32,000 nucleotides of DNA from Pseudothioglobus sp. nBUS_23. GTDB lineage: Bacteria > Pseudomonadota > Gammaproteobacteria > PS1 > Pseudothioglobaceae. Where the stretch lies: NCBI RefSeq assembly GCF_051201565.1, contig NZ_CP179200.1, positions 90,001-122,000 on the forward strand, in the 5' to 3' direction. The notes beneath the pieces were generated by a model, which searched no databases, was not told the DNA's origin, and was given only the letters and a program-made list of their open reading frames with translations. Positions 1 through 15,951 of this stretch are shown piece by piece; the first letter of the stretch is position 1; each line of letters starts with the position of its first letter. The translations under genes and the position numbers were made by a program.

Positions 1-650
1 CAATCCCAATAGTTAAAGATTCAAGAATTGGTTGGATTAAGAATATTCTATTTAGAGATTTAGATAATGATGGGGACATAGATTTATATCTAAACTCCAT
101 GGATCAAAGCACTAATGGTTCAGTTTTTGTAAATAATGGCGACTTTAACTTTTCATTAATAATGCCACCTGAGGCATACAAGTTATATGGGTCGCTAGCG
201 CAAAATGGCATAATTGAGTCTCTCGTAGATAGAGAAGAAAAAGTAAGTCAGCTTGCTGAACTTAAAAAGAAACAAGAAGAGGAAAAAGCTAAAAGGCTTG
301 CCAAGGATAGGGAAAATAAAAAAAATAATTTTAAATATTCGTCACGAAACTTTAAATCTCAGTTAAAACTATTACAGACTCAAGGTAATTTAGCGGTTTG
401 TAAAGCTATTTTAAAAGAGTTCCATGCTGGTGATTACTACAGCCAAACTAATAAAGAAACTTATTTATTTATCTCCATTGATAGTAATGGCTTGGATTGT
501 CATTATGAATGGTCTAGAAATGAAAACAATGCCCTTAGACGATGTAAGCAAAATAATAAAACAGATGGTAAATGCACAATCTATGCCCTAGGTGATAACA
601 TTGTTTGGGGTGATCCTGAGCTTTATAAGGAATTAACTGGAAGAAAATAG
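1..650 (+). CDS. 3' part of a further FG-GAP/VCBS-type member of the array family (5' end lies left of the window)
   Basis: Frame 3 is open from nt 3, upstream of the track Met at 99: IPIVKDSRIGWIKNILFRDLDNDGDIDLYLNS-MDQSTNGSVFVNNGDFNFSLI. This aligns with the C-terminal part of the 10517..12088 product (ILFNDLDSDGDYDLYLAS..GTVFINNGNFDFTMI). A Lys/Glu-rich helix and a Cys-containing tail follow. Confidence 0.75.
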   Translation, partial: IPIVKDSRIGWIKNILFRDLDNDGDIDLYLNSMDQSTNGSVFVNNGDFNFSLIMPPEAYKLYGSLAQNGIIESLVDREEKVSQLAELKKKQEEEKAKRLAKDRENKKNNFKYSSRNFKSQLKLLQTQGNLAVCKAILKEFHAGDYYSQTNKETYLFISIDSNGLDCHYEWSRNENNALRRCKQNNKTDGKCTIYALGDNIVWGDPELYKELTGRK

Positions 651-725
651 GTGCCATCCTTCGCATATATATACTGACTTTGAAGGTACGGGGGAGCCCC
701 TCTTGGCCTTTCGGATATATGTATA

Positions 726-778
726 CACCCTCCCTCACACATCAAACGAAATTTGGAATTCTATTTGAGCTATAATTT
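726..778 (+). repeat. Array intergenic element, copy 1 (variant B: core + TTCTATTTGAGCTATAATT)
   Basis: Reads CACCCTCCCTCACACATCAAACGAAATTTGGAATTCTATTTGAGCTATAATTT. The core ACATCAAACG lies 67 nt upstream of the ATG at 806. Confidence 0.9.
771..776 (+). promoter_or_regulatory. Candidate -10 box (TATAAT) inside variant-B element
   Basis: Perfect TATAAT 30 nt upstream of the ATG at 806. The same box is conserved at 5994..5999 and 7937..7942. No convincing -35 hexamer was found. Confidence 0.35.
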
Positions 779-805
779 AACTTTCTATTTATCTCATTCT
801 GCTTA

Positions 806-2068
806 ATGAAAAAAATATTATTTATATTTGTTTTGTCTTTGTACTCTATTCAAGGATTGGCCTCATCATGTCCTGATGGAAGCGAACCAGTTAAAAGTAT
901 CTCTGATGATGGCACTTATTTTGTTTTCAATTGCCCTGATCAAGTATCTCCTGATACTGATACTAATAAAGGTCTTATTAAATCTAATGACATTAGCTTT
1001 CCAGGTAAATTTTATACAACAGAAATTAGCGCCTGTAATGCCTTAGTCCCCGTATCTTTTAGCTTGAATTCTTCTATTAATCTTGTTAAAGGTTTAGTTG
1101 GCTATGATTGGCATGCTGATTGGGAGGCAAACAGTAATTCCATGAATGTTTATCATCAAAAAATTACAGAACCAATGAATATGCTAATGGCAGCAACGCA
1201 TAACGCATTGGGAAACGATTATCAAGCTAATATTAGCATAGCTAAAAACTTGTTAATAGAACTGGCTAAAACAGATACCTTGTATGACAGTATTGGCTAT
1301 ATTGAAGTCAGAAAGAAACCTGGTTGCTATGCCGGTGGTGATATAAATGCACCCTGCTGGTACCATGAATATCAATTCGCCAGTAACGTATTTTCAAATT
1401 ACATGATTACTGCATTATGGTTGCGAGATGAACTCAACGAGCAGGAGTTTGAGATTGTAGATAAGTACATCAAAAAGATGTACAAAAAGTTTCTACAGCC
1501 AATAGAACTTCAGGAAGAGGAGCAGGGTTTTTATGCCATGGCTAATGGTGGCACATCAATTCTTGCATACGCATCTTGGACAAATGATAAAGAGCTTGCT
1601 GCAGAAGAAATAAATCACAGGTTTAAAGAAATGGATAGGCTATTCTATGATGATGGCTACATAAACAACAATTCATTCAGAGGATATAGAGGTCAATGGT
1701 ACCACTCTTATGGATTAGATATTGCACTTGGTTACGTCTATATTGCGGAATTATGGGGCGCAGAGATTCCAGACAAACTTCAAAACAAATTAGTTAAAGC
1801 ATCAGAAGTTGTAAACCTAGCTATAACTGATTGGGACAAGTTTAAAAGCAGAAAGTATGACGGCAATCAAAGTAATGCTATTAATGACCCAAATAATGCC
1901 ATAAAGCACACTCACCAAGTCGCAATTGCAATAGACACACTAATGAAAATTGTCACTGGTGTAGAACTCGAGTACGACCCTGTGTACCTTCAAAAAAGAA
2001 AGTACCAAATTGGAAAGTCCAACGGAATAGATGAATTGATTGGATTTCCCCCAAATTGTATTAATTAG
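806..2068 (+). CDS. Array family member: signal peptide + CPDGSEP Cys-loop module + all-alpha alginate-lyase-like (PF05426-like) body
   Basis: N-terminus is MKKILFIFVLSLYSIQGLASS-CPDGSEPVKSISDDGTYFVFNC. The body has segments reminiscent of the alginate_lyase fold (ALGNDYQANISIAKNLLIELAK; ALWLRDELNEQEFEIVDKYIKKM; DDGYINNNSFRGYRGQWYHSYGLDIALGYVYIAELWG). The fold assignment is from memory of the family, not a search. Confidence 0.8.
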   Translation: MKKILFIFVLSLYSIQGLASSCPDGSEPVKSISDDGTYFVFNCPDQVSPDTDTNKGLIKSNDISFPGKFYTTEISACNALVPVSFSLNSSINLVKGLVGYDWHADWEANSNSMNVYHQKITEPMNMLMAATHNALGNDYQANISIAKNLLIELAKTDTLYDSIGYIEVRKKPGCYAGGDINAPCWYHEYQFASNVFSNYMITALWLRDELNEQEFEIVDKYIKKMYKKFLQPIELQEEEQGFYAMANGGTSILAYASWTNDKELAAEEINHRFKEMDRLFYDDGYINNNSFRGYRGQWYHSYGLDIALGYVYIAELWGAEIPDKLQNKLVKASEVVNLAITDWDKFKSRKYDGNQSNAINDPNNAIKHTHQVAIAIDTLMKIVTGVELEYDPVYLQKRKYQIGKSNGIDELIGFPPNCIN

Positions 2069-2090
2069 GCATCAGCGTTAGGACACTCTA

Positions 2091-2140
2091 CTTTCCCTTA
2101 CACATCAAACGAAATTTGGACTTTAGTTCAAGTTGACATA
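2091..2140 (+). repeat. Array intergenic element, copy 2 (variant A: core + CTTTAGTTCAA)
   Basis: Reads CTTTCCCTTACACATCAAACGAAATTTGGACTTTAGTTCAAGTTGACATA. It starts 22 nt after the stop at 2068. Confidence 0.9.
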
Positions 2141-2205
2141 TATCTGATTGTTTAAATTTAGCCATGGTATTCTTAATTGAATCCTAGTTAAACCTTAATA
2201 CTTTT

Positions 2206-3870
2206 ATGAAAAAACTATTCCTTCTCTTAATTCTTTCCTTCTTCTCAGTTCAAAGTTTAGCGGGGTCCTGTCCAGATGGAAGTGAGCCAATCAAGAGTAT
2301 TTCAGAGGACGGCACTTATTTTGTTTTCAACTGCGGTGTTAGCAATGAACAATCATCTTCAAATAGCAACGATTCATCTTCCTCTTCCTCAGTAAAAGCT
2401 GTTAAATTTGAATCATTTGTGGATACTGAGACATCATCAAGTTGTAAAGACCTCGATACAAATTTTTATCGTAAGAGCTCCAATAAGTGCTCAATCATTG
2501 CTGTCCTAGATAGAAAGCCTAAATTTCCAGGCGGACATTGGTTCAAGAATGTTTGGCAAACATCAGGATTGCTTATCCATCGAGTTAATAAAAATGGAAA
2601 TCTTGAAATAGTTGGTAAAGCTGAAAACATTCAAGTAGAGACAAATGAGAAAACAGATCGGCCTGGCCAAATGGAGATTGCAACCATTGAAGTTAATACA
2701 GAAGAGCTTGGCTCAAAATCTGTTGAAGTCATTAAAAACCCAATTGTTGAAATACCAGCCTCTACTATTCGAATGGTCTTGACTGATGTTAATCAAGATG
2801 GCTTAACTGAATTAGTCATTGCAGGTATGCTTGAAGATGGTAGGCATCAGGATTCATCATGGAAGGATGTGAATTATATCTATGACTTTGAGACTGAAAG
2901 CTATACAAAGTTTGGCAAACCAATGTATTCACATGACTTCGTAGCTGGAGATTTAGATGATGATGGCTATGATGATTTTATTGATATATCCTGGGGTGGA
3001 GATCATCAGGGATCGGGGATTGGTGTGTGTAATGGAAAAAGCTTGGAGTGCGTTTATCAGAACCATCCTACAAGACTTCAAACATCTAAAACATCACTTT
3101 CTGTCTATCCTAACAAAAAAGGTGGCATCTTATTTCACAACTGCGATAAGGAGTATTTAAGTTGGTGCTGGTCAGAGGTGACTTACAATAATTGGGGTAT
3201 AGAGTTAAAGCCTTTAGACAAGTATATTGCTAGTAAAAAGCCTGATAAGGAGGAGCTATTTAATAACTGGTCAGGATGGGAGCAAAAAAGAAAAGGATGG
3301 GCAGTGCCTGGATATGAAACGAGCGAAAGATTTAAATTAATCAGCGAATCCTATCGTTCTCATCAATTCGACATGGATGGCGATGGTGACTTTGATACTG
3401 CCACCTGGAAAGAAAATCGACTTTGCAAAAAATCAGCTTCAGAAAAAGTATATCAAATTACCTCCGATTGTAAACCTGTAGGAGAGATGTTTTTCTTTAG
3501 AAATGATAATGGCAAGTTTACTGTTTCGGATAGGCATGAGATTGACCCTGGCGCAACAACGCGCTTATACAGCTTCGACATAAATCAAGATGGCCATATG
3601 GATTTTTATGCCTTTAGAGACGAGTGGAATACATTTGAGTGTAATAATCAAATTAATAATATATTCTTTGGTAATGGCGATGGAACTTTTAGGAGGCCGT
3701 CAGTTAAAGAGCAAAGTGAAATCTTTGGGAACTACGGCTGTGAAATACAATCATATTTCTTCGACTTTGAGGGTGACAGCTATAGAACTTTCTTTACTCA
3801 CAAATACTCAAAGAATTTCTCTGGAAGTAGGGCAGTATATGTTGGTGTGGAGAAACTTGCTAATAATTAA
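2206..3870 (+). CDS. Array family member: signal peptide + Cys-loop module + Ser-rich linker + FG-GAP/VCBS repeat body
   Basis: N-terminus is MKKLFLLLILSFFSVQSLAGS-CPDGSEPIKSISEDGTYFVFNC, then SNEQSSSNSNDSSSSSS. DxDxDG-type repeats are present (LTDVNQDGLTELVIAG, VAGDLDDDGYDDFIDIS, FDMDGDGDFD, FDINQDGHMDFYAF). Confidence 0.85.
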   Translation: MKKLFLLLILSFFSVQSLAGSCPDGSEPIKSISEDGTYFVFNCGVSNEQSSSNSNDSSSSSSVKAVKFESFVDTETSSSCKDLDTNFYRKSSNKCSIIAVLDRKPKFPGGHWFKNVWQTSGLLIHRVNKNGNLEIVGKAENIQVETNEKTDRPGQMEIATIEVNTEELGSKSVEVIKNPIVEIPASTIRMVLTDVNQDGLTELVIAGMLEDGRHQDSSWKDVNYIYDFETESYTKFGKPMYSHDFVAGDLDDDGYDDFIDISWGGDHQGSGIGVCNGKSLECVYQNHPTRLQTSKTSLSVYPNKKGGILFHNCDKEYLSWCWSEVTYNNWGIELKPLDKYIASKKPDKEELFNNWSGWEQKRKGWAVPGYETSERFKLISESYRSHQFDMDGDGDFDTATWKENRLCKKSASEKVYQITSDCKPVGEMFFFRNDNGKFTVSDRHEIDPGATTRLYSFDINQDGHMDFYAFRDEWNTFECNNQINNIFFGNGDGTFRRPSVKEQSEIFGNYGCEIQSYFFDFEGDSYRTFFTHKYSKNFSGSRAVYVGVEKLANN

Positions 3871-3918
3871 ATTAGATTAAAAAAGTTTAATAATTAATTC
3901 ATTGAGGATTGATACTAG

Positions 3919-3970
3919 CCATTCACTTACACATCAAACGTAATTTGGACTTTAGTTCAAATTGAGTCTA
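3919..3970 (+). repeat. Array intergenic element, copy 3 (variant A)
   Basis: Reads CCATTCACTTACACATCAAACGTAATTTGGACTTTAGTTCAAATTGAGTCTA. The core lies 60 nt upstream of the ATG at 3990. Confidence 0.9.
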
Positions 3971-3977
3971 ATTAAGG

Positions 3978-3983
3978 TATAGT
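3978..3983 (+). promoter_or_regulatory. Candidate -10 box (TATAGT) exactly 6 nt upstream of the start codon; possible leaderless transcript
   Basis: The layout is TTCAAA-N16-TATAGT-N6-ATG(3990). The same TATAGT-N6-ATG geometry recurs at 10505..10510 before the ATG at 10517. Confidence 0.3.
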
Positions 3984-3989
3984 TTATGT

Positions 3990-5939
3990 ATGAAAAAACT
4001 ACTCTTATTTTTAATTTTATTTTTCTTTTCAATACAAAGTTATGCAAACTCCTGCCCTGATGGCAGTGACCCAGTTAGGAGTATTTCTGCTGATGGTACT
4101 TATTTCGTCTTTAACTGCAGTAGTAATAGTGAAAATGCTTCTCAGTCCAATAATTCAGCTTCAACTGAGGAAAAAACTCAAATTGAGTGGGTTGATGGTT
4201 TATATGCAAAATCAATAACAGATGAATTCAATGTCTTAAGCAAAGATTTCAGTAAGTCTGTCGAATCTGGGGGTTCAATGATTACACCCCTTGGTTCGGG
4301 TGATTTTTCAGGAGACGGCATGCCTGAAATTGTTTACGGCATACAATATTGGGATTTAAAAAAAGGCTCTCATATTAAGCCAATATTTTTGACAAAAACT
4401 CCTGGCAAGGGTTTTTCTTTGTTTAGACCAATAATGGATATAGTTCCATATACTTGCAATGCTAGAAGTTCGGTCATTGAGGATTTCAATGGAGATGGGG
4501 TCAACGATATTTTCATTGCTGACACTGGAGTTGACTATGATCCATTTCCTGGCTGCCAAAACTCATTAATCTTGAGCGCTCCTAACGGCAAATTTATAAA
4601 TGCTACTTCAAACTTACCACAAATATTAGACTTTACTCATGGAGTTACCAGTGGAGATGTTGACTCAGATGGGGATATTGATTTGTTTGTTACGCAAGCA
4701 GGCATTGACGTTAATGTACCCCATTATTTCTTAAGAAATAATGGCAAAGGTAGATTTACTAAAATTCCAGATGGGCAACTATTAGATAGGGGTCTTTCTT
4801 ATATATCGTGGAAACCTGGTAATAAAAGAAGAAACATTTTCTATACTCCAGGTTTGGAGTTTGTTGATGATGATGACAAGCTTGATTTAATTCTTTTAAG
4901 TGGCAAGCTTGAAGGTGTTGACAACAACAGAATAATTTTTGGTTCGAATTCTGGATTCAAAAAAAGCGATGCCCTTGAACTTCAACCCGGAAGATTTGGC
5001 AGGAAAAGTGCTGGATACAATTATCTCGTAACAGATATTGATAATGATGGTGATAACGATATATTGATACTTCATGTAACCATAAACCTATTGATAGAGC
5101 GGAGTCATCTCGGCATAGATCTTCAAGTTCTTATCCAAGAAAATAATCGAAAATTCGTCGATAAAAGTAATTTTTATTTTCCAGGAATTACCTTTGATTA
5201 TGGAACGTGGAACAAATCGCTTAATTTGATAGATATAAATAATGACGATAAAAATGATATTGTATTGGTTTCTGGTAACGGAATTGACGACCCATCCAAA
5301 CAGCAAATAGGAAGTCAAATTAAAACAAGCCCGCCTAAGGTGTTGATTAGACAAGAGGATGGCTCATTTAGACCTCTAAATAATGATTTACTTACTGGGG
5401 GAGAAAAAAACACTCTTGCAGGTATTCGCCCAATCGATATAGATAATGACGGAGATATAGAATTTGTTGTCCATAAAGGCTCAGAAAAAGGGTTTACTCT
5501 TCAAGTACTCGAGTTAACAACTAATAAAGATGAATCCACGTTGGAGTCCTTTAGACCCACCCATAGCAATCGCTCGTCAGATACAGTTCTAAGTAGCCCG
5601 TTATTTGATGGACGCTATTCTTTTACTATATCACGCTTCAATGAAAATGATGGAAGTCAGCGCCTAGGAAATGGTTATATTGAAATCAACAATGGAATCA
5701 TGACTGTGGCAAAAGAGGGTCGCACTCTAGATAAAAGAATTGGTTCAATAGACTTGTATGATTCATTTAAAGGTCAAATTGATAAGGAAGGCAATATTAT
5801 CAGTTCGCTTAAAATAAATGTCTTGACTGGAAAGACCCATTTATTTTTAGTAGATTTAAATGGGAGTATCGATAGCCCATTACAAGGTGAGTGGGACCAT
5901 TATTTTGACGTGATTTTGAAGTTGGATAAAAAAGAGTAA
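3990..5939 (+). CDS. Array family member: signal peptide + Cys-loop module + FG-GAP/VCBS body + C-terminal FDGRYSF module
   Basis: N-terminus is MKKLLLFLILFFFSIQSYANS-CPDGSDPVRSISADGTYFVFNC, then a Ser/Asn linker. Repeats include FSGDGMPEIVYG, EDFNGDGVNDIFIAD, TSGDVDSDGDIDLFVT, VTDIDNDGDNDILIL, LIDINNDDKNDIVLV and IDIDNDGDIEFVV. The last ~113 aa are homologous to the C-terminus of the 7972..10113 product. Confidence 0.85.
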   Translation: MKKLLLFLILFFFSIQSYANSCPDGSDPVRSISADGTYFVFNCSSNSENASQSNNSASTEEKTQIEWVDGLYAKSITDEFNVLSKDFSKSVESGGSMITPLGSGDFSGDGMPEIVYGIQYWDLKKGSHIKPIFLTKTPGKGFSLFRPIMDIVPYTCNARSSVIEDFNGDGVNDIFIADTGVDYDPFPGCQNSLILSAPNGKFINATSNLPQILDFTHGVTSGDVDSDGDIDLFVTQAGIDVNVPHYFLRNNGKGRFTKIPDGQLLDRGLSYISWKPGNKRRNIFYTPGLEFVDDDDKLDLILLSGKLEGVDNNRIIFGSNSGFKKSDALELQPGRFGRKSAGYNYLVTDIDNDGDNDILILHVTINLLIERSHLGIDLQVLIQENNRKFVDKSNFYFPGITFDYGTWNKSLNLIDINNDDKNDIVLVSGNGIDDPSKQQIGSQIKTSPPKVLIRQEDGSFRPLNNDLLTGGEKNTLAGIRPIDIDNDGDIEFVVHKGSEKGFTLQVLELTTNKDESTLESFRPTHSNRSSDTVLSSPLFDGRYSFTISRFNENDGSQRLGNGYIEINNGIMTVAKEGRTLDKRIGSIDLYDSFKGQIDKEGNIISSLKINVLTGKTHLFLVDLNGSIDSPLQGEWDHYFDVILKLDKKE

Positions 5940-5948
5940 GTCAAAAAC

Positions 5949-6000
5949 CACCCTCCCTCACACATCAAACGAAATTTGGATTTCTATTTGAGCTATAATT
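5949..6000 (+). repeat. Array intergenic element, copy 4 (variant B)
   Basis: Reads CACCCTCCCTCACACATCAAACGAAATTTGGATTTCTATTTGAGCTATAATT. It starts 9 nt after the stop at 5939. TATAAT lies at 5994..5999. Confidence 0.9.
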
Positions 6001-6033
6001 AAATTTTTATCTACAAATCCTCCTTTCTATCTT

Positions 6034-7857
6034 ATGAAAAAAATATTATTTATTTTTGTGCTGTCTTTGTATTCAATTCAAGGATTTGCTTCATCATGCC
6101 CTGATGGCAGTGAGCCAGTAAGGAGTATTTCTGCTGATGGAACTTATTATGTTTTTAGCTGCGAGGGTGGAAACAAAAAAGCATCTTCATCTAATACGAA
6201 TATAAATGTAGGGCCAGTAAGCATTAATATCCACGATGAGTACCATTATAATAATTTTCCTGGACTTGTCAGTTTAGACTTTGCCTTTGCGATTAGAACA
6301 GCCTTTTATGGATATGTCCAAATACCCTTGATTGATGTCAATGATGATGGACACAAAGATTTGATATTTAATTCAGACCCACCTTACGCTGGACCTAATG
6401 TTGAAGTTACACAAAACACTGCGAATTTAGTGGTATCTCCTTGGCTTGAGGAGTGGAAAGAATACGATATGATTGATACACTCGAATCACCAAATACCAC
6501 ATTTGGAAGAGGTGATAACATTCGAGTCGCTGACTTCAATGGTGACGGCAGAATGGATATGGTAATCGCGTCAAGTAGTCTGGGACAAATTGACGGTCGG
6601 TTTGATTATGGAGGCGTAATAGTACTTACAAATACAGGTAAAGGTATATTTACTCCCAAGTATATTGGCAAAAAACAATTCACTCACGCACACGGTGTTG
6701 GCGATGTAGATAGTGACGGTGATATTGATATTATCTATCATCAATTAAATGATAAAAATATTTTGTGTGCTTACAACGACGGCAAAGCAAATTTCACAGT
6801 CAAACCGTGTCTGCGAACACCAATAGATACAATACGAGGATTCATTCAAAATGTTTGGGGTTTTCGTATTGCCGACTATGATAACGACGGATTTAATGAT
6901 GTTCTTGTTTTAGCACACCACGGCCCTAAAAAAACAACCTTCTTTCAACATCAATATCGTAACAACCAACTAAAGAACCCAGGAATATTTTGGGGCAATG
7001 GAAGTGGCCAGTTCTCTTGGAATGATATGACATTTATCGACTTATCTGAATGGAATGATAAACCATTTGACCAAGGTGAAGTTTACTTTGATGGTTCAGG
7101 AGCAAGTCAAACCACAGTAGATATTGGTAATGATGGTGATGTTGATATTGCTATCAATATATTATCCAAGTGGACTGTAGGTAGTGCGGTTGTGTTAGTT
7201 GAAAATTTAGGTAATCGAGAGTTTACGACTAAAGAGATTACTCGTTCAAAGTACCTAAAAGAAGACCCCAAACGTTTTCGCACAATTCAGGACAAACATA
7301 CACAAGCCAGTACTCCTGTTAATTTGCACGAAGGTATCGTTTGGAACCAGGCTTGTATGCCAAAGTTTATTGATTTAAATAGCGACAACATAGATGACAT
7401 GATTTGTGAAGGTATCTCTTATGTTGTTACTAATGAAATTGCAAAAAGTGATTGGGAGAATCATTCACCCGAGCATCAACGAATTACTCCTTTTGCAAAT
7501 ACGAGTGACTGGACTTGGGATTGGAGTATGGGCCAAACTTATTACATCTTAGACGAAGAAAGCAATGTGCTTGATGAAGGTCATATCTTTAACAAGACTA
7601 GAAGTGACTTTTCTAATGAATTCAAACGTGGTGGTTACAAAATCAAAACAGTTGGGTATAGATTTCAGAATGACTCTACTAGTCAAGCACAAATAGCAAC
7701 AGAGATTGCTGCTCAAGAGTTAATGGATGAAATATTAGAGGAAGTTGACGACAAAGTTTCTTTACCTGTTATTAAAGAAAAAACATCAGCAGAGATAGCT
7801 GCTCAAGAGTTAATGGATGAAATATTAGAAGAATTAGAAGCAGAATCTAGTCAGTAA
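6034..7857 (+). CDS. Array family member: signal peptide + Cys-loop module + FG-GAP/VCBS body + acidic helical tail with internal duplication
   Basis: N-terminus is MKKILFIFVLSLYSIQGFASS-CPDGSEPVRSISADGTYYVFSC. Repeats include VADFNGDGRMDMVIAS, GVGDVDSDGDIDIIYH, IADYDNDGFNDVLVLA and VDIGNDGDVDIAINI. The tail carries EIAAQELMDEILEE twice. Confidence 0.85.
   Translation: MKKILFIFVLSLYSIQGFASSCPDGSEPVRSISADGTYYVFSCEGGNKKASSSNTNINVGPVSINIHDEYHYNNFPGLVSLDFAFAIRTAFYGYVQIPLIDVNDDGHKDLIFNSDPPYAGPNVEVTQNTANLVVSPWLEEWKEYDMIDTLESPNTTFGRGDNIRVADFNGDGRMDMVIASSSLGQIDGRFDYGGVIVLTNTGKGIFTPKYIGKKQFTHAHGVGDVDSDGDIDIIYHQLNDKNILCAYNDGKANFTVKPCLRTPIDTIRGFIQNVWGFRIADYDNDGFNDVLVLAHHGPKKTTFFQHQYRNNQLKNPGIFWGNGSGQFSWNDMTFIDLSEWNDKPFDQGEVYFDGSGASQTTVDIGNDGDVDIAINILSKWTVGSAVVLVENLGNREFTTKEITRSKYLKEDPKRFRTIQDKHTQASTPVNLHEGIVWNQACMPKFIDLNSDNIDDMICEGISYVVTNEIAKSDWENHSPEHQRITPFANTSDWTWDWSMGQTYYILDEESNVLDEGHIFNKTRSDFSNEFKRGGYKIKTVGYRFQNDSTSQAQIATEIAAQELMDEILEEVDDKVSLPVIKEKTSAEIAAQELMDEILEELEAESSQ
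7701..7834 (+). repeat. In-frame direct repeat (two ~44-nt copies, period 90 nt) within the acidic tail of the 6034..7857 CDS
   Basis: 7701..7744 (agagattgctgctcaagagttaatggatgaaatattagaggaag) and 7791..7834 (agagatagctgctcaagagttaatggatgaaatattagaagaat) differ at 2 positions in the first 42 by hand alignment. Confidence 0.85.
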
Positions 7858-7892
7858 ATAAAGCCCCTCTCGACCTCGTAGATAGATATATA

Positions 7893-7943
7893 CTTCCTCA
7901 CTTACACATCAAACGAAATTTGAATTCCTTTTGAACTATAATT
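7893..7943 (+). repeat. Array intergenic element, copy 5 (variant B)
   Basis: Reads CTTCCTCACTTACACATCAAACGAAATTTGAATTCCTTTTGAACTATAATTT. TATAAT at 7937..7942 lies 30 nt before the ATG at 7972. The sequence just upstream (7861..7892) is also homologous to 695..725. Confidence 0.9.
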
Positions 7944-7971
7944 TAACTTTCTATTTATCTCATCCTACTTA

Positions 7972-10113
7972 ATGAAAAAAATATTATTTATTTTTGTGCT
8001 GTCTTTGTATTCAATTCAAGGATTTGCCTCATCATGCCCTGATGGCAGTGAGCCAGTAAGGAGTATTTCCGATGATGGTACTTATTATGTATTTAACTGC
8101 TCAGAGCCAGTTTCAACTTCTGAAGATTCAAGCCCTCGCTCTAGCAAACTACTTCCAGACAAGCTTAAAGAAATCAAAGTGGTAAAGGATTGGGAGCCCA
8201 TTGCTGATTGGGAGTCTGTAAAAGAATATGCTAAGCTGGTTCCAATTCCCAGATGGAAAAATGAAAGTATTTATGATCAATATGTTGACAGAAATTGTAG
8301 TGAGAGATTTACGAGCGTAAACCCTTATCCAGGTGATAATCCTTCAGCAAGAATTTTTGCGCATTGTCAATCATACCTTCATGCAGCGTCTTCAAATAAC
8401 CCACAAATACTAGGTGACATTTTACTGTCCTGGGCCTCAGCTTCAAAAGATCCAATGTTTGTTGTGCCTTATGAGGTTGAAACCCATGAAATCAAACATT
8501 CTGTTGCAGGCTACAATATCCCATCAGCCATTGGCACATTTGCCCAGTCTTATGCATTCTGGTATGACGAAATAGCATACACGCCAGAGGAGCGTCAACG
8601 GGTAGATGATTACATGACTAAGAAACTAATGGAGCAAAAATTTCTCCCGATAAGTCGTGACTACAATGGACCGCGCATTAAATGTGATATTAATGATCTT
8701 AGTAGCGTTTACAGTGAACGAACCGGCACAAATAACTGTGGCAATGTGCGAATGAAAGTAGCAGTGGGTGAAATTATGCTTGGTTTTAGATTAGAAAACC
8801 AAACTTTGTTAGATAAAGGGCATGATGATATGTATGTCGTGCATGCCTTTATTAATGAAGACGGTATTAATATCAATCATGCTTCAAGGGGCGGTAATAC
8901 AGTGAACTACTCTTGGGAATACACATACTACTCAAGTCTATTAGCAGAGATATATGATTCAGTTGGTTATGACTATTTTGAGCATACGCTTCCTCGCGGG
9001 GCAAAAGTTCATGAGTATTTAAGCTTTAATTACAGGCTATTAAAAGATTTTAAGCTGACTGCCCAATGGGCAAAATATAATATTGGGTCATTGTGGCTGC
9101 CCTATGATCAGATCAAGAATTTATCACAACAATTATATGAAAAAACTACTAATGGGGGATGGGCTTATAGCTGGGAGGATGGTGATAAAGAGTTTGTAAA
9201 AGCACACACTAAATTTGTGAAGCGTTATATGCCAGAGCTTTACAATTTTGATGTAAAAAATTACATGGGTTCAAATTTTAATGATTCACCTAATTTTGGT
9301 GTTCATCCCTACATGCTCCATATAGGTAATAACGTATTAGAAGAAAATTCTAATACTTCAAAGATTGAACTTTTACGTCAAGCTAAGTTACAAGAAGAAA
9401 TTGATCAATGTGCTAAAGCAACTTCTGATAGTGGGTTTAATGGCGAATATGAGGCCAAATGGTTTCGAGATCATTGGAATGGCAATGGTGAGTGGGAGTT
9501 TGTAGGCTCAGAGCCTCTCATTCTAGATCAATGCGAAGGTGAATTTGAAGGCTTAAAACAATTTGATCCTCGCCCTACACCAGCAGTTAGAAAAAAGCTA
9601 ATTGTCAAGTATCAATCAAATGGTGACATTTCAATTAAGGGTGATTTGAATTTATATACTATTGATGACCTTAGATATACCGAACTTTATGGAAATATTA
9701 ATGATGGTGAAATTTCAGGAGTTTGGGGCTTTGGTAATCGCCTAAAGATAGAGTTTTCCAAGAAACCAAAGCCAACAGAACTCTTTGATGGTCGCTATAG
9801 TTTTGAATTGTTTCGTTATGCAGAGGATGAAGCTGACGATATAGGCAATGGCATCATTAACATATCTAATGGTCAAATAACTATTGATGAGAGTAATCGA
9901 AATTTGCAAACAGGAGATTCAGATTTGTATGATACTTTTAGTGGTCAAGTTGATAAAAATGGAGACGTATCTGGCTCTGTTAAACTCGATATTTATAGTT
10001 CGGGACAAAAATCAGAAGAATTTTTCTTTGAAGGCCTGATAGATGAAGAAATATGGGGAGAATCTCCTATAGAAGACTTTTTCAAAGTTTATATGAAACT
10101 AAAAAAGCAATAG
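7972..10113 (+). CDS. Array family member: signal peptide + Cys-loop module + alginate-lyase-like all-alpha body + C-terminal FDGRYSF module
   Basis: N-terminus is MKKILFIFVLSLYSIQGFASS-CPDGSEPVRSISDDGTYYVFNC. The body resembles the 806..2068 body (ERQRVDDYMTKKLMEQKFLPI versus FEIVDKYIKKMYKKFLQPI; NEDGININHASRGGNTVNYSWEYTYYSSLLAEIYDSVGYDYF). The C-terminal 111 aa are homologous to the tail of the 3990..5939 product. Confidence 0.85.
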   Translation: MKKILFIFVLSLYSIQGFASSCPDGSEPVRSISDDGTYYVFNCSEPVSTSEDSSPRSSKLLPDKLKEIKVVKDWEPIADWESVKEYAKLVPIPRWKNESIYDQYVDRNCSERFTSVNPYPGDNPSARIFAHCQSYLHAASSNNPQILGDILLSWASASKDPMFVVPYEVETHEIKHSVAGYNIPSAIGTFAQSYAFWYDEIAYTPEERQRVDDYMTKKLMEQKFLPISRDYNGPRIKCDINDLSSVYSERTGTNNCGNVRMKVAVGEIMLGFRLENQTLLDKGHDDMYVVHAFINEDGININHASRGGNTVNYSWEYTYYSSLLAEIYDSVGYDYFEHTLPRGAKVHEYLSFNYRLLKDFKLTAQWAKYNIGSLWLPYDQIKNLSQQLYEKTTNGGWAYSWEDGDKEFVKAHTKFVKRYMPELYNFDVKNYMGSNFNDSPNFGVHPYMLHIGNNVLEENSNTSKIELLRQAKLQEEIDQCAKATSDSGFNGEYEAKWFRDHWNGNGEWEFVGSEPLILDQCEGEFEGLKQFDPRPTPAVRKKLIVKYQSNGDISIKGDLNLYTIDDLRYTELYGNINDGEISGVWGFGNRLKIEFSKKPKPTELFDGRYSFELFRYAEDEADDIGNGIINISNGQITIDESNRNLQTGDSDLYDTFSGQVDKNGDVSGSVKLDIYSSGQKSEEFFFEGLIDEEIWGESPIEDFFKVYMKLKKQ

Positions 10114-10115
10114 AA

Positions 10116-10170
10116 ACTCCCTCCCTCACACATCAAACGAGATTTGGACTTTAGTTCTAATTGACATATA
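10116..10170 (+). repeat. Array intergenic element, copy 6 (variant A)
   Basis: Reads ACTCCCTCCCTCACACATCAAACGAGATTTGGACTTTAGTTCTAATTGACATATA. It starts 2 nt after the stop at 10113. The core lies 68 nt upstream of the ATG at 10198. Confidence 0.9.
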
Positions 10171-10197
10171 ATCCTATTTTTTTTAGGAGAGACTTAG

Positions 10198-10431
10198 ATG
10201 ATGCGATTTGCTAAATACGAACAACACTTAAAGTGGTTCGCACTATTCCTTGGTATCCTAAGCACAATTGCCATTATCAATGACTTGTATCCTTATACAA
10301 TGTTTATTGGACTTCCTTTTTGCTTAATCTGGGTTTACTGTGCTTGGCTTCATACTGAAAAACAATTGAAATGGATTAATATAATCTTTACTGGGTTATA
10401 TACATATGGAATAGTGAATTACTATATTTAG
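10198..10431 (+). CDS. Small (77 aa) predicted 3-TM membrane protein, bracketed by two copies of the array element
   Basis: There are three hydrophobic stretches (WFALFLGILSTIAIINDLY, MFIGLPFCLIWVYCAWL, WINIIFTGLYTYGIVNYYI). A strong SD (AGGAGA) lies 6-7 nt upstream. No array-family N-terminal module is present. Confidence 0.65.
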   Translation: MMRFAKYEQHLKWFALFLGILSTIAIINDLYPYTMFIGLPFCLIWVYCAWLHTEKQLKWINIIFTGLYTYGIVNYYI

Positions 10432-10442
10432 CATTAATTAAT

Positions 10443-10493
10443 ACCCCTCCCTCACACATCAAACGGAATTTGGACTTTAGTTCAAATTGAGTC
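10443..10493 (+). repeat. Array intergenic element, copy 7 (variant A)
   Basis: Reads ACCCCTCCCTCACACATCAAACGGAATTTGGACTTTAGTTCAAATTGAGTC. The core lies 61 nt upstream of the ATG at 10517. Confidence 0.9.
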
Positions 10494-10504
10494 CTATTAA
10501 GAGG

Positions 10505-10510
10505 TATAGT
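10505..10510 (+). promoter_or_regulatory. Candidate -10 box (TATAGT) 6 nt upstream of the start codon; possible leaderless transcript
   Basis: The layout is TTCAAA-N18-TATAGT-N6-ATG(10517), the same geometry as at 3978..3983. Confidence 0.3.
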
Positions 10511-10516
10511 TAGATT

Positions 10517-12088
10517 ATGAAAAAACTATTCCCTCTCTTAATTCTGTCCTTCTTATCAGTCCAAAGTCTTGCGGGTTCATGCCCTGATGGCAGTGAGCCA
10601 ATTAAGAGTATTTCAGAGGACGGCACTTACTTTGTATTCAACTGTGGTGGTGGCAATAAACAATCATCTTCATCTACTGCTAATTCATCAAATGTCAATT
10701 CAAAAACAAAAGCATTAGCTGGTATTTATATTGAGAATGATCCCAATATTAATTTCTTTGCTCCGCCATCACATCCTCCACCAACAAGAGTGCTATACCC
10801 TGGAACAGGTGGATATTTTAAGGCTGATTTTAATAATGATGGTCTAACTGATCTTATCTATGCTGGTGGAATGCATGCAGAAAACTATGGCTGTTCTTAT
10901 CAAGATAGATGTACTCTCCAACAGCAGGATGATGGTATTAAACCACAACCTGCACTTTATATGGGCGGCGCTGATGGTAAGTTTAACTACTCGCCTGAGC
11001 TGTTGATTGATAATCGTGACAATAAAGGCATGTCAGTTGGAAGGCAGTTACTAATCGCAGACTATAATAATGATAAAGTGTTAGATATTTATATTGCAGA
11101 CCACGGACAGACGCATCAAAACCAAGGTTATCGTGATAGTTATTATCTAAGTCAGCCAAATGGAACGTGGCTCGAGTCAAGTAACACCCATCTTAGTGAT
11201 AATAACTTCATAGCGTATGCACACGGCGCGGCTACCGGCGATATTGATAATGATGGCGATATGGATGTTGTGCTAACTGACTGGAGAACGTTTTGGTGTT
11301 TAATGAATGATGGTAGTGGGTTTTTAGCAAAACGTCAATGTGGCGGCAGTAATGCATTTGGTCTGGAGCTAGCTGATATGGACAATGATGGCAACTTAGA
11401 TGCTATATTTGGCGGTAATGAATATGGGGGCAATGGTTTCCCAACTGGAATTTACTGGAATGATGGTCAAGGAAATTTTATACCCTATACCATAACCCGA
11501 CTTAAGCAACACAAAGTATGGGGGGGAATATCTGAAGTATCGGCCTGGGATTTAGACAATGACGGTGATATGGACATAGTTTATGGTAGGAATAAAAAAT
11601 CAATTAAAGGAGCTGCGATACAAATTATAGAAAACTTAGGTAACAAGAAGTTTAAGGACCATGGAATCTTTCCAGTAGATAGTAACTTTAGTGTTTTTAT
11701 CATGTCTATTCTATTCAATGATTTAGATTCTGATGGTGATTATGATTTGTATCTTGCTTCAAAATCTCATTTGACTGATGGAACAGTTTTTATAAACAAC
11801 GGTAATTTTGATTTTACAATGATTAAGCCAGATGATAGACCGTCACCTAAATCATTAGGACTTTATGAAATGTTAGATGATAGCAGTGTAGTAATACCTA
11901 AAAAAGTATTAGAAGAACTTGCCGCAGAAGAAGAAGCTAAAGCTAAAAGTTATAGAGAAGCCTTAGCAGCTAATCTCAAACGTATCGCTGAAAAAGCTGA
12001 TAAGGCAACAGAAAATGAAACTGAGCAATCGATTGAAGATGAAATCGCAGCGTTTGAAGCTGAACTAGAAGCAGAACTTGGTCAGTAA
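10517..12088 (+). CDS. Array family member: signal peptide + Cys-loop module + FG-GAP/VCBS body + acidic coiled-coil-like tail
   Basis: N-terminus is MKKLFPLLILSFLSVQSLAGS-CPDGSEPIKSISEDGTYFVFNC, then a GGGNKQSSSSTANSSNVNS linker. Repeats include KADFNNDGLTDLIYAG, IADYNNDKVLDIYIAD, ATGDIDNDGDMDVVLTD, LADMDNDGNLDAIFGG, AWDLDNDGDMDIVYG and FNDLDSDGDYDLYLAS. The tail reads EELAAEEEAKAKSYREALAANLKR..IEDEIAAFEAELEAELGQ. Confidence 0.85.
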   Translation: MKKLFPLLILSFLSVQSLAGSCPDGSEPIKSISEDGTYFVFNCGGGNKQSSSSTANSSNVNSKTKALAGIYIENDPNINFFAPPSHPPPTRVLYPGTGGYFKADFNNDGLTDLIYAGGMHAENYGCSYQDRCTLQQQDDGIKPQPALYMGGADGKFNYSPELLIDNRDNKGMSVGRQLLIADYNNDKVLDIYIADHGQTHQNQGYRDSYYLSQPNGTWLESSNTHLSDNNFIAYAHGAATGDIDNDGDMDVVLTDWRTFWCLMNDGSGFLAKRQCGGSNAFGLELADMDNDGNLDAIFGGNEYGGNGFPTGIYWNDGQGNFIPYTITRLKQHKVWGGISEVSAWDLDNDGDMDIVYGRNKKSIKGAAIQIIENLGNKKFKDHGIFPVDSNFSVFIMSILFNDLDSDGDYDLYLASKSHLTDGTVFINNGNFDFTMIKPDDRPSPKSLGLYEMLDDSSVVIPKKVLEELAAEEEAKAKSYREALAANLKRIAEKADKATENETEQSIEDEIAAFEAELEAELGQ

Positions 12089-12090
12089 TT

Positions 12091-12130
12091 AACCTCCCTC
12101 ACACATCAAACGAAATTTGGACTTTAGTTA
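12091..12130 (+). repeat. Array intergenic element, copy 8 (terminal copy, truncated after CTTTAGTTA; no downstream + strand gene)
   Basis: Reads AACCTCCCTCACACATCAAACGAAATTTGGACTTTAGTTA and starts 2 nt after the stop at 12088. Confidence 0.9.
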
Positions 12131-12142
12131 TGTACCTGATAA

Positions 12143-12496
12143 TTATTGGCGTAGAATTTTTTCCATCACTTTTCCACTGGCAAGCTCGTCAATCATCTTA
12201 TCTAAGTATCGGATTTCTTGCATAGTAGACTCTTTGATGTCCTCTACTCTAACCCCACATACAACACCCTGAATTAGAGTGCGACAAGGATTTAATTGGG
12301 GCGCTTCTTTAATAAAGGTTTCAAAATCAACCTCTTGTTTTAATTGTTCTCCAAGTTCTTTTTCGTTGTAGCCTGTTAGCCATTGGATAATCTGATTCAC
12401 TTCAGTCTTTAGGCGTCCTTTTCTCTCTGCTTTTTGAATGTACAGTGGGTAAATACTTGCAAAGCTCATTTTATAAATGTGGTGTGCTTGGGACAT
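12143..12496 (-). CDS. DUF2200 family protein
   Basis: The N-terminal [34 protein letters not shown] matches the conserved DUF2200 signature as I recall it (MSFASVYP.YVQKAEKKGRTK.EVD.VI.WLTGY). Confidence 0.75.
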
Positions 12497-12499
12497 ATT

Positions 12500-12552
12500 A
12501 TCAAACGAAGTTGGACTGTCTTAGGGTATCAAACTAAATTTGGACTTTAACT
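12500..12552 (+). repeat. Two degenerate half copies of the array element lacking the C-rich 5' part
   Basis: 12500..12524 reads ATCAAACGAAGTTGGACTGTCTTAG and 12528..12552 reads ATCAAACTAAATTTGGACTTTAACT. Both are in the same orientation as copies 1-8, between two minus-strand genes. Confidence 0.7.
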
Positions 12553-15636: not shown

Positions 15637-15951
15637 ATGAAAATTAAATATTTATTAGTATTTATTAGTTGTCTTTTTGGTGTTTCATTAGCAAACAATC
15701 TTGATGATTGGTCTAATGAGGACCTCTGCAGGTGGGTTGAGGCTGTCTCAGTGCCAGACCCAATTTTATTTGAGATAGAGGTCAGAGAGCTAGCATGTTT
15801 TTCAAATCTTGATGTAAGCGATAACTCTATTCAAGAACCCTATGCCGCAGAACATGGAACAGTATTTCCTTCACCTTCATCTAATAATGGCTCCAACAAA
15901 AATTCAGAGAGCGGCATAAGGTTCATTTTCAATTACAGGGTTAAATTATAA
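15637..15951 (+). CDS. Small secreted Cys-pair protein, paralog 1 (DDWSNxDLCxW family)
   Basis: The signal peptide MKIKYLLVFISCLFGVSLA is followed by NNLDDWSNEDLCRWVEAVSVPDPILFEIEVRELAC...GTVFPSPS. It is paralogous to 18483..18779 and, more distantly, to 20542..20892. Confidence 0.7.
   Translation: MKIKYLLVFISCLFGVSLANNLDDWSNEDLCRWVEAVSVPDPILFEIEVRELACFSNLDVSDNSIQEPYAAEHGTVFPSPSSNNGSNKNSESGIRFIFNYRVKL

Follow-up and report, generated by a model that had tools for sequence, protein, structure and literature searches.

A Shared, Mosaic Expression and Export Start Ahead of Unrelated Cargo in a Marine Pseudothioglobus Gene Array, and Its Probable Exchange by Homologous Recombination

Introduction

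How can a row of neighboring genes begin almost alike and then continue so differently? The question is raised by a 32,000-nucleotide (nt) stretch of Pseudothioglobus sp. nBUS_23 (contig NZ_CP179200.1, positions 90,001 to 122,000, forward strand), which we refer to throughout as the window. Positions 1–12,140 of the window hold a row of co-oriented genes: the end of one gene (1–650), then genes 806, 2206, 3990, 6034, and 7972, a small open reading frame (ORF) at 10198, and gene 10517, each named after its first nucleotide. The six large proteins start with a 21-residue leader, followed by the motif C-PDGSEP-x-[KR]-SIS-x-DGTY[FY]VF[NS]-C. The start shared by all six genes is about 129 nt long and consists of this leader and the 22-residue Cys-to-Cys segment, which we call the tag. 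A 22-nt core, CACACATCAAACGAAATTTGGA, recurs between the genes. The organism belongs to the Thioglobaceae (SUP05, Arctic96BD-19), which are abundant ocean bacteria with small genomes.

The original prediction held that the repeated element, the region upstream of the gene, the leader, and the Cys segment form a single 5′ unit that ends right after the second Cys codon, is independent of the body behind it, and is maintained by recombination or by selection on the nucleotides. We find that recombination and the assortment of starts independently of bodies both hold up, while the confinement of exchange to one 5′ unit does not. The reading that we favor, and consider probable, is that the start is a common module for expression and export, and that homologous recombination uses its conserved DNA for crossovers.

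Results and Discussion

A Conserved Start Followed by Unrelated Bodies

The core occurs in 8 copies in the window, all on the + strand with at most 3 mismatches, where 0 were expected from shuffles. The search placed them at 736, 2099, 3928, 5959, 7903, 10127, 10453, and 12100, and a repeat finder independently returned the core as family D3 (its other families are D1, D2, D6, D7, and D13). The six copies known beforehand were all recovered, but two had been missed, both of variant A: the copy at 10127 precedes a small, unrelated membrane ORF, and the copy at 12100 has no co-oriented gene after it. The sequence CCCTCCCTCACACATCAAACGAAATTTGGA stands after each gene of the array.

Two variants of the element can be told apart. 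Variant B is GGAWTTCTATTTGAGCTATAAT and lies ahead of genes 806, 6034, and 7972, with the copy at 7903 differing by a 1-nt deletion and one G>A change; variant A is GGACTTTAGTTCAA and lies ahead of genes 2206, 3990, and 10517. This split matches the split of the leaders, as had been claimed. The three B genes begin MKKILFIFVLSLYSIQG[LF]ASS, and the grouping of the three A-type leaders also stands, although the regular expression proposed for them fits gene 3990 (MKKLLLFLILFFFS) only inexactly. The 3-by-3 association of element and leader in the six genes alone is weak (Fisher P = 0.10). The B leader was confined to B-type −10 regions when 114 family genes were drawn from other genomes and metagenomes, with 12 of 18 B-type cases vs. 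0 of 96 others (P = 3 × 10−12).

Over the shared 129 nt, genes 6034 and 7972 differ at 6 positions, the first of them at nt 57 (the first 56 nt are identical), and genes 2206 and 10517 match at 114 (88%), in agreement with an earlier estimate of roughly nine in ten. In each of the 15 pairs, identity falls abruptly once the second Cys codon is passed, again as had been noticed, to 0.42–0.57 over nt 130–249; the baseline for unrelated or random body segments is 0.47 ± 0.03. BLASTP detected no similarity between the bodies of genes 806 and 7972, nor between those of 6034 and 7972, and elsewhere only distant FG-GAP similarity, the four FG-GAP bodies being 23–36% identical to one another.

The bodies do not follow the A/B split, and on this point the earlier observation was correct: variant B precedes a weakly lyase-like body (806), an alginate-lyase-family body (7972), and an FG-GAP body (6034). 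FG-GAP_3 of Pfam scores above its gathering score in genes 2206, 3990, 6034, and 10517. The Alginate_lyase score of gene 806 (19.8 bits) lies below the Pfam cut-off of 22.2. Gene 7972 has no Pfam match of its own; homologues that are 60–73% identical carry PF05426 or are named as alginate lyase family, and its assignment comes solely from the PF05426-bearing homologues. A sequence search of solved structures with genes 806 and 7972 returned nothing useful.

The Start Is a Mosaic Rather Than One Block

When the start is divided into three segments, each segment groups the six genes differently, contrary to the idea of a single block. The last 60 nt before the ATG join 806 with 7972 (identity 0.89) and 3990 with 10517 (0.82). 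The leader codons join 6034 with 7972 (0.98) and next with 806 (0.89–0.90), as well as 2206 with 10517 (0.87). The Cys segment joins 6034 with 7972 (0.92), 2206 with 10517 (0.89), and 3990 with both 6034 and 7972 (0.89), so that gene 3990 keeps the company of 6034 and 7972 there despite its A-type leader.

Breakpoints were located by an informative-site maximum chi-square test on triplets of genes. Gene 7972 resembles 806 upstream (19:2) and 6034 downstream, in the leader and Cys segment (3:17), with a breakpoint near the ATG (P = 0.0002); gap columns inflate some of these informative-site counts, and the substitution sites agree in pattern. Gene 10517 has an upstream region like that of 3990 and a coding start like that of 2206 (breakpoint P = 0.0002), and a third triplet gave a breakpoint with P = 0.0004.

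Starts and Bodies Re-assort across Genomes

A profile of the first 49 residues matched hundreds of proteins, and in almost all of them the module occupies residues 1–48. In a library clustered at 50% identity, 287 clusters carry an N-terminal tag at E ≤ 1 × 10−3 and 213 at E ≤ 1 × 10−10. A Pfam scan of 54 long representatives found 24 families behind the tag, among them FG-GAP, Polysacc_lyase, Alginate_lyase, Sel1, SNase, trypsin-like peptidase, the glycoside hydrolase families GH5 and GH113, dienelactone hydrolase, beta-lactamase, and S9 peptidase.

For comparison of segments, we assembled 117 tagged genes, each together with the DNA upstream of it; they come from the window, from genome loci, and from 80 metagenome contigs. 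Their upstream regions were typed by the distance from core to ATG (A1, 30 nt; A2, 42 nt; A3, 85 nt; and B with or without a 5′ untranslated region, UTR), and five types of leader (A, A′, B, C, and D) were distinguished. The B leader stands solely behind B-type −10 regions with a UTR (9 cases, plus 3 degenerate ones). The B-type −10 region without a UTR precedes A-type leaders six times in other genomes, which again argues against one block. Type A3 occurs with both A′ and A leaders. Distances in the leader and in the Cys segment correlate weakly (Mantel r = 0.39), and linkage between segments is weak in general (Mantel r = 0.28–0.49).

Bodies were sorted into 32 clusters at ≥45% identity, several of which have two or more leader or promoter types. 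The orthologous body of gene 6034 in locus L127 has an A-type leader, as does a body of the 806 cluster in L160; the 10517 cluster combines A, A′, and B leaders with A1, A2, A3, and B promoters; and the orthologue of gene 2206 in L023, 85% identical, has another promoter type and another Cys-segment allele.

Nucleotide profiles reveal where exchange tracts end. Gene 6034 and its counterpart in L127 (L127_3585) are 86–93% identical in the core, 26–70% from about −40 to +80, and mostly 90–100% from about nt 80 on, with scattered 30-nt windows at 46–69%. L175_393 and L185_2331 have bodies that are 100% identical behind upstream DNA at background identity. The near-identical contigs L126 and L127 differ by a single codon-3 substitution over a stretch that spans the upstream gene, the element with its promoter, and the third gene as far as nt ~42; beyond that point, which lies inside the signal-peptide codons, they carry different cassettes. 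The junctions are thus scattered inside the conserved stretch, neither at its 3′ edge nor at one fixed site. The exchanged unit had been expected to end after the second Cys codon, but junctions fall near the ATG (about −40 to +80) and within the signal-peptide codons. The boundary after the second Cys is the end of protein-level conservation of the tag, not the end of exchange tracts.

Many ORFs of 48–86 amino acids (aa), on contigs of up to 74 kb, consist of leader, tag, and linker only (P0001, P0002, P0007, P0017, and others). Some of these are frameshifted full genes: P0002 resembles gene 7972, and P0017 resembles gene 6034 with an A-type leader.

Selection Acts Mainly on the Tag Peptide

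Nei-Gojobori estimates for the Cys segment in window pairs gave a proportion of nonsynonymous differences (pN) of 0.04–0.10 and, in most pairs, a proportion of synonymous differences (pS) of 0.55–0.94. Because pS is saturated while pN is low, the conservation of the Cys segment reflects mainly selection on the peptide, and not, as had been proposed as one option, selection on the nucleotides that keeps the start together as a unit. The exceptions are genes 6034 and 7972 over the whole 129 nt (pS 0.14; synonymous divergence, dS, 0.16), the Cys segments of 3990 with 6034 and 7972 (pS 0.29), and the leaders of 2206 with 10517 and of 806 with 6034 and 7972 (pS 0.33–0.43). These low values indicate more recent sharing among genes whose bodies are unrelated, and only the 6034/7972 pair is a recent copy. 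Synonymous divergence, which had been suggested as a check on the shared start, therefore gives a divided answer: most Cys segments are saturated, while 6034 and 7972 share theirs recently.

The same pattern extends to the family. The Cys segment has pN 0.07 and pS 0.50 in pairs with unrelated bodies, and pS of the leader and tag is about 0.4–0.55 regardless of whether the bodies are close orthologues, distant homologues, or unrelated. Divergence at the 5′ end does not follow divergence of the body.

Promoter Geometry and Probable Leaderless Starts

A TATAAT-like hexamer (at least 5 of 6 matches) ends exactly 6 nt before the ATG in 65 of 106 non-redundant family genes, while any other offset accounts for at most 5. 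This 6-nt distance is kept across three spacer types (A1, A2, and B without a UTR). Leaderless transcripts of the sigma-70 type are recognized by a −10 hexamer about 6–7 nt upstream of the start codon, the lack of a Shine-Dalgarno (SD) sequence, and a transcription start at the A of the ATG. Since the spacing between hexamer and ATG matches the usual distance from −10 to start site, most family members probably have leaderless mRNAs that begin at the A of the ATG, among them genes 3990 and 10517 in the window. No canonical SD sequence at normal spacing was seen in the family genes; there is only an AAGG/GAGG tetramer 16 nt upstream in 3990 and 10517. In the B-type genes of the window, the hexamer lies 29–34 nt upstream of the ATG. 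Assuming a transcription start ~7 nt after the hexamer, variant B in the window would yield a 5′ UTR of roughly 22–27 nt with no SD sequence.

A similar geometry is found in two ordinary genes of the window, at 25694–26872 (−; TACAAT-TTTTTC-ATG) and 15637–15951 (+; TAGAAT-TGACTT-ATG), and many window genes are without an SD sequence. Initiation in this organism may often be leaderless or independent of an SD sequence.

The Core Belongs to a Dispersed, Probably Two-Part Repeat

An exact scan with one genome per species placed the core on numerous contigs from Ca. Thioglobus, Ca. Pseudothioglobus, SUP05, and related single-cell genomes, with matches in other taxa at chance background. The consensus of the repeat is an optional palindromic insert, then CCTCCCTC, ACACATCAAACGAAATTTG, GACTTTAGTTCAAGTTGAtATAcAATCaTAGT, and ATG AAr AAA CTa CTC. 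In Thioglobaceae, only 2 of 92 copies have the core inside a long ORF. The orientations of the neighboring genes relative to the element are (+,+) in 24 cases, (+,−) in 16, (−,+) in 16, and (−,−) in 0, which means that in every case the upstream gene reads into the element or the downstream gene reads out of it. A promoter block has been retained in 22 of 40 copies with a co-oriented downstream gene vs. 3 of 16 without one, and some copies hold only AAACGAAATTTGGAC and the promoter block (L115, L123, L160). Together, the orientation rule, the retention of the promoter block, and these partial copies suggest an element of two halves: a C-rich, G-free left half that would belong to the 3′ end of the upstream gene, and a right half that would be a promoter. 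Rho-dependent termination at the C-rich half is one idea; no hairpin terminator was found in that half, and no intrinsic terminator in any intergenic spacer of the array.

Other functions for the core were considered. A positioned promoter element, such as an UP element or activator site, is disfavored by the variable distance from core to −10 (13, 18, 30, and 29–39 nt) and by intact cores where no promoter block or co-oriented gene comes next. A role as a DNA uptake sequence or strand-orienting motif is at odds with how seldom the core lies within ORFs and with its clustering (8 copies in 12 kb, 0 in the next 20 kb). An RNA element was rejected: Rfam gave no match at gathering score and, at E ≤ 5, only chance-level matches with none on the elements; the folding energy of the core with flanks or intergenic regions was no better than that of shuffles (z −1.2 to +0.9); and RNAalifold on 100 aligned 5′ units found no conserved structure (−1.35 kcal/mol). 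The repeat finder reported no inverted repeats at the elements, and the core is not attC-like.

Directly to the left of many cores (e.g. L015, L024, L038, L062, L114) lies a palindromic insert of ~45–85 nt. It has two sequence subtypes, GGGGAGGCTCATTGCTCTCGGCTATGTATTAATATAA and GGGAGCCCCTCTCGACCTCGTAGATAGATATATACA, at many Thioglobaceae loci and is bordered by imperfect 9-nt direct repeats (CCATCCTTC, CCCTCCCTC); base pairing is possible between its G-rich start and the CCTCCC in the core. Judged by these features, it looks like a small insertion, similar to repetitive extragenic palindromes (REP) or miniature inverted-repeat transposable elements (MITE), that targets the element. In L099 (reverse strand, ~7567), a core is followed by its own reverse complement (AAACCTCCCTCACACATCAAAC ... 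GTTTGATGTGTGAGGGAGGTTT), which makes a perfect 22-bp hairpin with a T-rich run next to an orthologue of the window gene at 12551–13225. Complete core-promoter units are also found ahead of ORFs of just 5–8 codons (MKKLLIL*, MKKLLN*), in L014 (5355), L023 (4989), L033, L100, and L109.

Weighing the Explanations

According to the reading that we favor, the locus would be a tandem array of independently expressed genes for exported proteins, each assembled from interchangeable modules. Module 1 would be the Thioglobaceae-wide repeat, whose left half (CCCTCCCTCACACATC) would go with the 3′ end of the preceding gene and whose right half (AAACGAAATTTGGAC... up to TAnAAT) would be the promoter for the next. 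Modules 2, 3, and 4 would be a Sec-type signal peptide, the 22-residue tag (C-PDGSEP-x-K-S-I-S-x-DGTYFVFN-C) under strong peptide selection, and the cargo body. Dozens of paralogues resemble one another in DNA sequence over the core, the first codons, and the codons of the tag, so a crossover could fall anywhere in this ~200-nt stretch. Homologous recombination and gene conversion would then re-pair promoters, leaders, tags, and bodies, and would replace whole cassettes. The module structure, mosaicism, selection pattern, and re-assortment are seen directly in the sequences compared above, and the A/B co-variation in the window is partial linkage of neighboring segments, with no fixed unit.

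Several observations weigh against this reading. The core is perfectly conserved even where no promoter or family gene follows it. Tag codons 22–43 (869–934, 2269–2334, and the equivalent positions of the window) show position-specific choices that often oppose the preference of the genome: P23 is CCT in 93% of tags (37% in bodies), P28 is CCA in 97% (45%), S26 and S31 are AGT in 95% (26%), E27 is GAG in 86% (32%), K30 is AAG in 78% (29%), and N42 is AAC in 92% (25%), while neighboring four-fold third positions (G25, V29, G36, and V40) are free to vary. No RNA structure was found that would account for these choices. This points to something beyond plain peptide selection, which could be a nucleotide-level function or a continual homogenization that keeps a recombination substrate. 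Genes on the same contig are only marginally more alike than genes on different contigs (P = 0.08–0.10), so within-genome concerted evolution is not strong. A simple sigma-70 scan was not enriched over shuffles in the AT-rich array region, so that the leaderless reading rests on positional regularity and not on consensus scores. Promoter use, leaderless starts, the cleavage site, and the function of the tag are all features that we infer.

One alternative is that selection on the nucleotides alone, acting through a regulatory RNA, a leaderless initiation context, or a protein-binding site, keeps the 5′ unit without any exchange. The odd tag codons speak for it, as do the 100% conservation of the core in >100 copies and the recurrence of the first codons ATGAAAAAACTACTC even in orphan copies. 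It is nevertheless at odds with the saturation of synonymous sites in most window pairs, with pS of ~0.5 across the family, and with the lack of conserved RNA structure or Rfam matches, and it leaves unexplained the mosaics with significant breakpoints and the orthologous bodies with different leaders. We consider it unlikely.

A mobile promoter or MITE-like element, comprising the core, promoter, and first codons and inserting ahead of genes, would make the co-variation a matter of element sub-families. Dispersal through the genomes of several genera, orphan copies with truncated ORFs, and palindromic inserts with imperfect 9-nt direct repeats beside many cores would all be expected of it, and reused promoters are a published concept (PMC3575422). 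Yet the core-promoter unit lacks both terminal inverted repeats and clean duplications of a target, no transposase was found in the Pfam-scanned ORFs of the window, and the spacing from core to −10 varies (13, 18, 30 nt, and more). The orientation rule and the absence from ORFs fit selection or recombination equally well, and the exchange of leader and tag codons would go unexplained. This account, too, seems improbable to us.

Site-specific recombination of an integron-like or Vsp/Vpma-like kind, with the core as its site and a recombinase encoded elsewhere, is still harder to accept, and we think it very unlikely. A highly conserved element does lie between every gene pair of a co-oriented array, the Mycoplasma vpma/vsp sites sit in a conserved 5′ UTR (PMC2268961), and L126 and L127 differ by a cassette replacement. 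However, Pfam detected no recombinase, integrase, or transposase domain in the window ORFs that were scanned (all but ORFs 30050–30766 and 30900–31472). The core has no inverted-repeat or attC-like structure and is scattered genome-wide beside unrelated single genes; each gene has its own promoter-like region, with all genes in one direction; and the junction positions vary (signal-peptide codons, near the ATG, −40 to +80). An integron with attC sites in particular was rejected, as no intI was found in the scanned ORFs and no attC-like hairpin at the core (z −1.2 to +0.9).

Finally, plain tandem duplication of whole genes whose bodies diverged past recognition behind a conserved start would suit the tandem, co-oriented array and the four of six bodies that are FG-GAP with 23–36% identity, but it is hardly credible given that lyase-family and FG-GAP bodies have no detectable similarity, that 6034 and 7972 have a start dS of 0.16 with no similarity afterwards, that the tag heads 24 Pfam families, and that orthologues differ in their starts.

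The Leader and Tag as a Candidate Sorting Signal

The leader has the features of a Sec signal peptide: an MKK start (n-region), a helix at residues 4–16 in the model, and small residues at −3 and −1. Ahead of Cys22 it ends in an invariant S-x-Q-x-x-A-x-x motif, with S at −8, Q at −6, [FLY] at −4, A at −3, [GAS] at −2, and [SG] at −1. All 106 of 106 family sequences agree with the −3/−1 rule of signal peptidase I, with A/T/S/G at −3 (A in 99 of 106) and S/G/A at −1. A strict lipobox, [LVI][ASTVI][GAS]C, was rejected (0 of 106). A permissive PROSITE-like lipobox pattern fits 88 of 106, and the Cys at +1 is invariant; lipidation of the family proteins may still occur.

An AlphaFold model from a 75-sequence alignment predicted, besides the leader helix, a beta-hairpin with strands at 29–32 and 39–42 at a model confidence (pLDDT) of ~78–87, followed by a linker below 50. 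This linker is rich in Ser, Asn, and Gly and is predicted to be disordered. We infer that signal peptidase I creates a mature N-terminus at Cys22 and that a Cys22–Cys43 disulfide closes the hairpin tag, which most likely gives many cargo domains a sorting or anchoring signal in common. No Pfam or NCBIfam model matches the tag.

A bolder extension, which we offer only tentatively, is that the tag module (S-x-Q-x-x-A-x-x-C-PDGSEP...DGTYFVFN-C) is an undescribed sorting or anchoring signal with its own Thioglobaceae machinery, and that its uniform codons and the core are portable homology arms with which populations could exchange cargo genes at standing slots for expression and export through homologous recombination, doing the job of an integron without a recombinase.

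The tag and the end of the leader are also found internally in two proteins, P0198 and P0237 (...AQGLAGSCPDGSEPVKSV... at residue 298 of P0237), where they look like fusion scars. In addition, P0181 (1,816 aa) contains 13 repeats of YPDGGRQITMSGDGTVFTFN that resemble the tag, a similarity that hints at a relationship between the tag hairpin and YD/RHS-type repeats.

Layout of the Array and Its Surroundings

The features of the array are collected in Table 1. The gene at its left end runs off the start of the window, so the array extends upstream. Exact matching of proteins, meant to follow it further in that direction, led only to a 1.4-kb contig for gene 806 and to none for gene 7972. At the other end, core copy 8 faces a convergent DUF2200 gene (12143–12496).

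Table 1. Coordinates of array features in the window
Feature	Position	Strand	Remarks
3′ part of another FG-GAP-type gene	1..650	+	Frame-3 translation has DLDNDGDIDLYL and VFVNNGDFNFSL, as in gene 10517
Palindromic insert ("long form" left module)	657..726	+	Beside core copy 1; hairpin in fold of 651–775; D6
Core copy 1 (CCCTCCCTCACACATCAAACGAAATTTGGA), then variant B	727..757	+	D3
TATAAT, −10-like hexamer	771..776	+	29 nt before ATG of gene 806; implied 5′ UTR without SD
Gene 806	806..2068	+	420 aa; weakly alginate-lyase-like body; PF05426 E = 6 × 10−4, under cut-off
5′ coding unit of gene 806	806..934	+	21-residue B-type leader and 22-residue Cys-to-Cys tag
Core copy 2, variant A	2090..2120	+	Then 85-nt spacer (type A3)
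Gene 2206	2206..3870	+	554 aa; FG-GAP body; 5′ unit 2206–2334, A-type leader
Core copy 3, variant A	3919..3949	+	Type A2
TATAGT, −10-like hexamer	3978..3983	+	Ends 6 nt before ATG of gene 3990; putative leaderless geometry
Gene 3990	3990..5939	+	649 aa; FG-GAP body; 5′ unit 3990–4118
Core copy 4, variant B	5950..5980	+	
TATAAT, −10-like hexamer	5994..5999	+	34 nt before ATG of gene 6034
Gene 6034	6034..7857	+	607 aa; FG-GAP body; 5′ unit 6034–6162, B-type leader
Partial palindromic insert	7862–7893		Adjoins core copy 5
Core copy 5, degenerate variant B	7894..7924	+	TACACATC...TTTGAA
TATAAT, −10-like hexamer	7937..7942	+	29 nt before ATG of gene 7972
Gene 7972	7972..10113	+	713 aa; alginate-lyase-family body; 5′ unit 7972–8100, mosaic 5′ region
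Core copy 6, variant A	10118..10148	+	Ahead of small ORF
TATAAT and AGGAGA SD	TATAAT 10167–10172	+	Ahead of small ORF
Small hydrophobic ORF	10198..10428	+	~76 aa; outside tagged family; own "cassette" between two core copies
Core copy 7, variant A	10444..10474	+	Type A2
TATAGT, −10-like hexamer	10505..10510	+	Ends 6 nt before ATG of gene 10517
Gene 10517	10517..12088	+	523 aa; FG-GAP body; 5′ unit 10517–10645
Core copy 8	12091..12121	+	Truncated after GGACTTTAGTT; no promoter block behind

The cassette of the small ORF has a poly-T tract, and the same element and ORF start were seen in L046 and L077. Gene 6034 has an internal 90-nt tandem duplication (repeat family D8).

The 3′ ends of the genes show relationships of their own. 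The C-terminal ~115 aa are common to genes 3990 and 7972 (39% identity; 5467–5939 vs. 9646–10113) despite their differing bodies. Genes 6034 and 10517 have similar acidic tails (7680–7857 vs. 12040–12088), and the block of tail, stop codon, and core of gene 10517 (GAAGCnGAACTnG..GGTCAGTAATTAACCTCCCTC; repeat family D13) also occurs in L012, L023, L044, and L108. C-terminal modules are shuffled too.

The closest relative found, L063 (1–3530, compared with ~9000–12500 of the window), is 91% identical across the redoxin gene and further. Beside its SelL-like redoxin gene, L063 has a Rieske-type oxygenase and small secreted proteins in place of the array, and because it carries other genes at this site, the array sits in a variable region. 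The remainder of the window is ordinary chromosomal content, including proteorhodopsin, glutathione S-transferase, Rieske oxygenase, and nitrilase-family hydrolase genes, among others. Downstream of the array are a proteorhodopsin-type gene (Bac_rhodopsin; 23470–24174, −) and a cupin of the dimethylsulfoniopropionate (DMSP)-lyase family (25097–25687, −), which fit a heterotrophic surface-ocean Pseudothioglobus.

Comparison with Known Systems

The kind of arrangement is already known. In the Erp proteins of Borrelia burgdorferi, as summarized in one account (PMC10016077, citing Marconi 1996 and Akins 1999), promoter/operator DNA, the leader, and the first mature residues are conserved, and the bodies are of many independent origins and often recombine. 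By analogy, our locus resembles the Erp group (OspE/OspF/Elp, "upstream homology box") in its common start for expression and export, its unrelated cargo, and its recombination mosaic. The two differ in that Erp genes occupy one allelic site on cp32 prophage plasmids and encode lipobox lipoproteins with a 5-residue sorting sequence that interact with the host, whereas here chromosomal tandem arrays of a free-living marine gammaproteobacterium carry a leader that fits signal peptidase I, a 22-residue Cys-bracketed hairpin, and a genome-wide upstream repeat, with no sequence homology to Erp.

The Vsp/Vpma/Vsa families of Mycoplasma are likewise clustered, with a conserved 5′ UTR and signal peptide, no homology further on, and recombination at the 5′ end (PMC2268961). 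They share with our array a conserved 5′ region and signal peptide ahead of divergent bodies. There, however, a tyrosine recombinase (Xer1, Mbr, HvsR) moves one promoter by inversions at fixed sites, producing phase variation, whereas here each gene has a −10-like hexamer, all lie on the + strand, the scanned window ORFs include no recombinase, and the junctions vary.

Near-identical promoter regions have also been described ahead of non-homologous genes within and between genomes (PMC3575422). Such reused promoters, and the Correia elements of Neisseria, are comparable in that the intergenic repeat here would supply −10-like signals; in contrast to them, it reaches into the first codons, and one of its halves is tied to the 3′ end of the upstream gene. 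Correia-type elements have inverted ends, which the Thioglobaceae repeat lacks.

An integron array is similar in having co-oriented, unrelated genes split by a recurring element, with gain or replacement of cassettes between close relatives. It differs in that no intI was found among the scanned window ORFs (the window stops short of the upstream end of the array) and the element is not attC-like; moreover, the cassettes here have their own promoters and a shared coding start, and exchange apparently proceeds by homology with no fixed crossover. The tag itself recalls PEP-CTERM, the C-terminal domain of type IX secretion, LPXTG, and the Bacteroidetes lipoprotein export signal, in each of which one short peptide is found on hundreds of unrelated exported proteins per lineage. 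The tag differs from these by being N-terminal, directly after the signal peptide, and by its two invariant Cys residues; its role as a sorting signal is a likely one.

Compared with Borrelia Erp and Mycoplasma Vsp, the biological setting is another one and the cargo range is much larger. What is new is that the setting is a family of free-living marine gammaproteobacteria with small genomes, that an N-terminal tag between two Cys residues stands on hundreds of cargo clusters, and that the family-wide repeat is bipartite and probably supplies leaderless promoters.

Conclusion

The region shows how a small genome can maintain exported enzymes and binding proteins in large number and rapid turnover behind a single standard start, which consists of a compact and probably leaderless promoter, a signal peptide, and the common tag. 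Among these proteins are lyases for alginate and other polysaccharides, glycoside hydrolases, peptidases, nucleases, and FG-GAP proteins. Should the tag prove to be a true sorting signal, it would represent a new route of export or anchoring and would provide a simple rule for predicting the secretomes of this clade. The conserved start would be a natural example of cassette exchange by homology only, which bears on the variation in gene content among co-existing strains.

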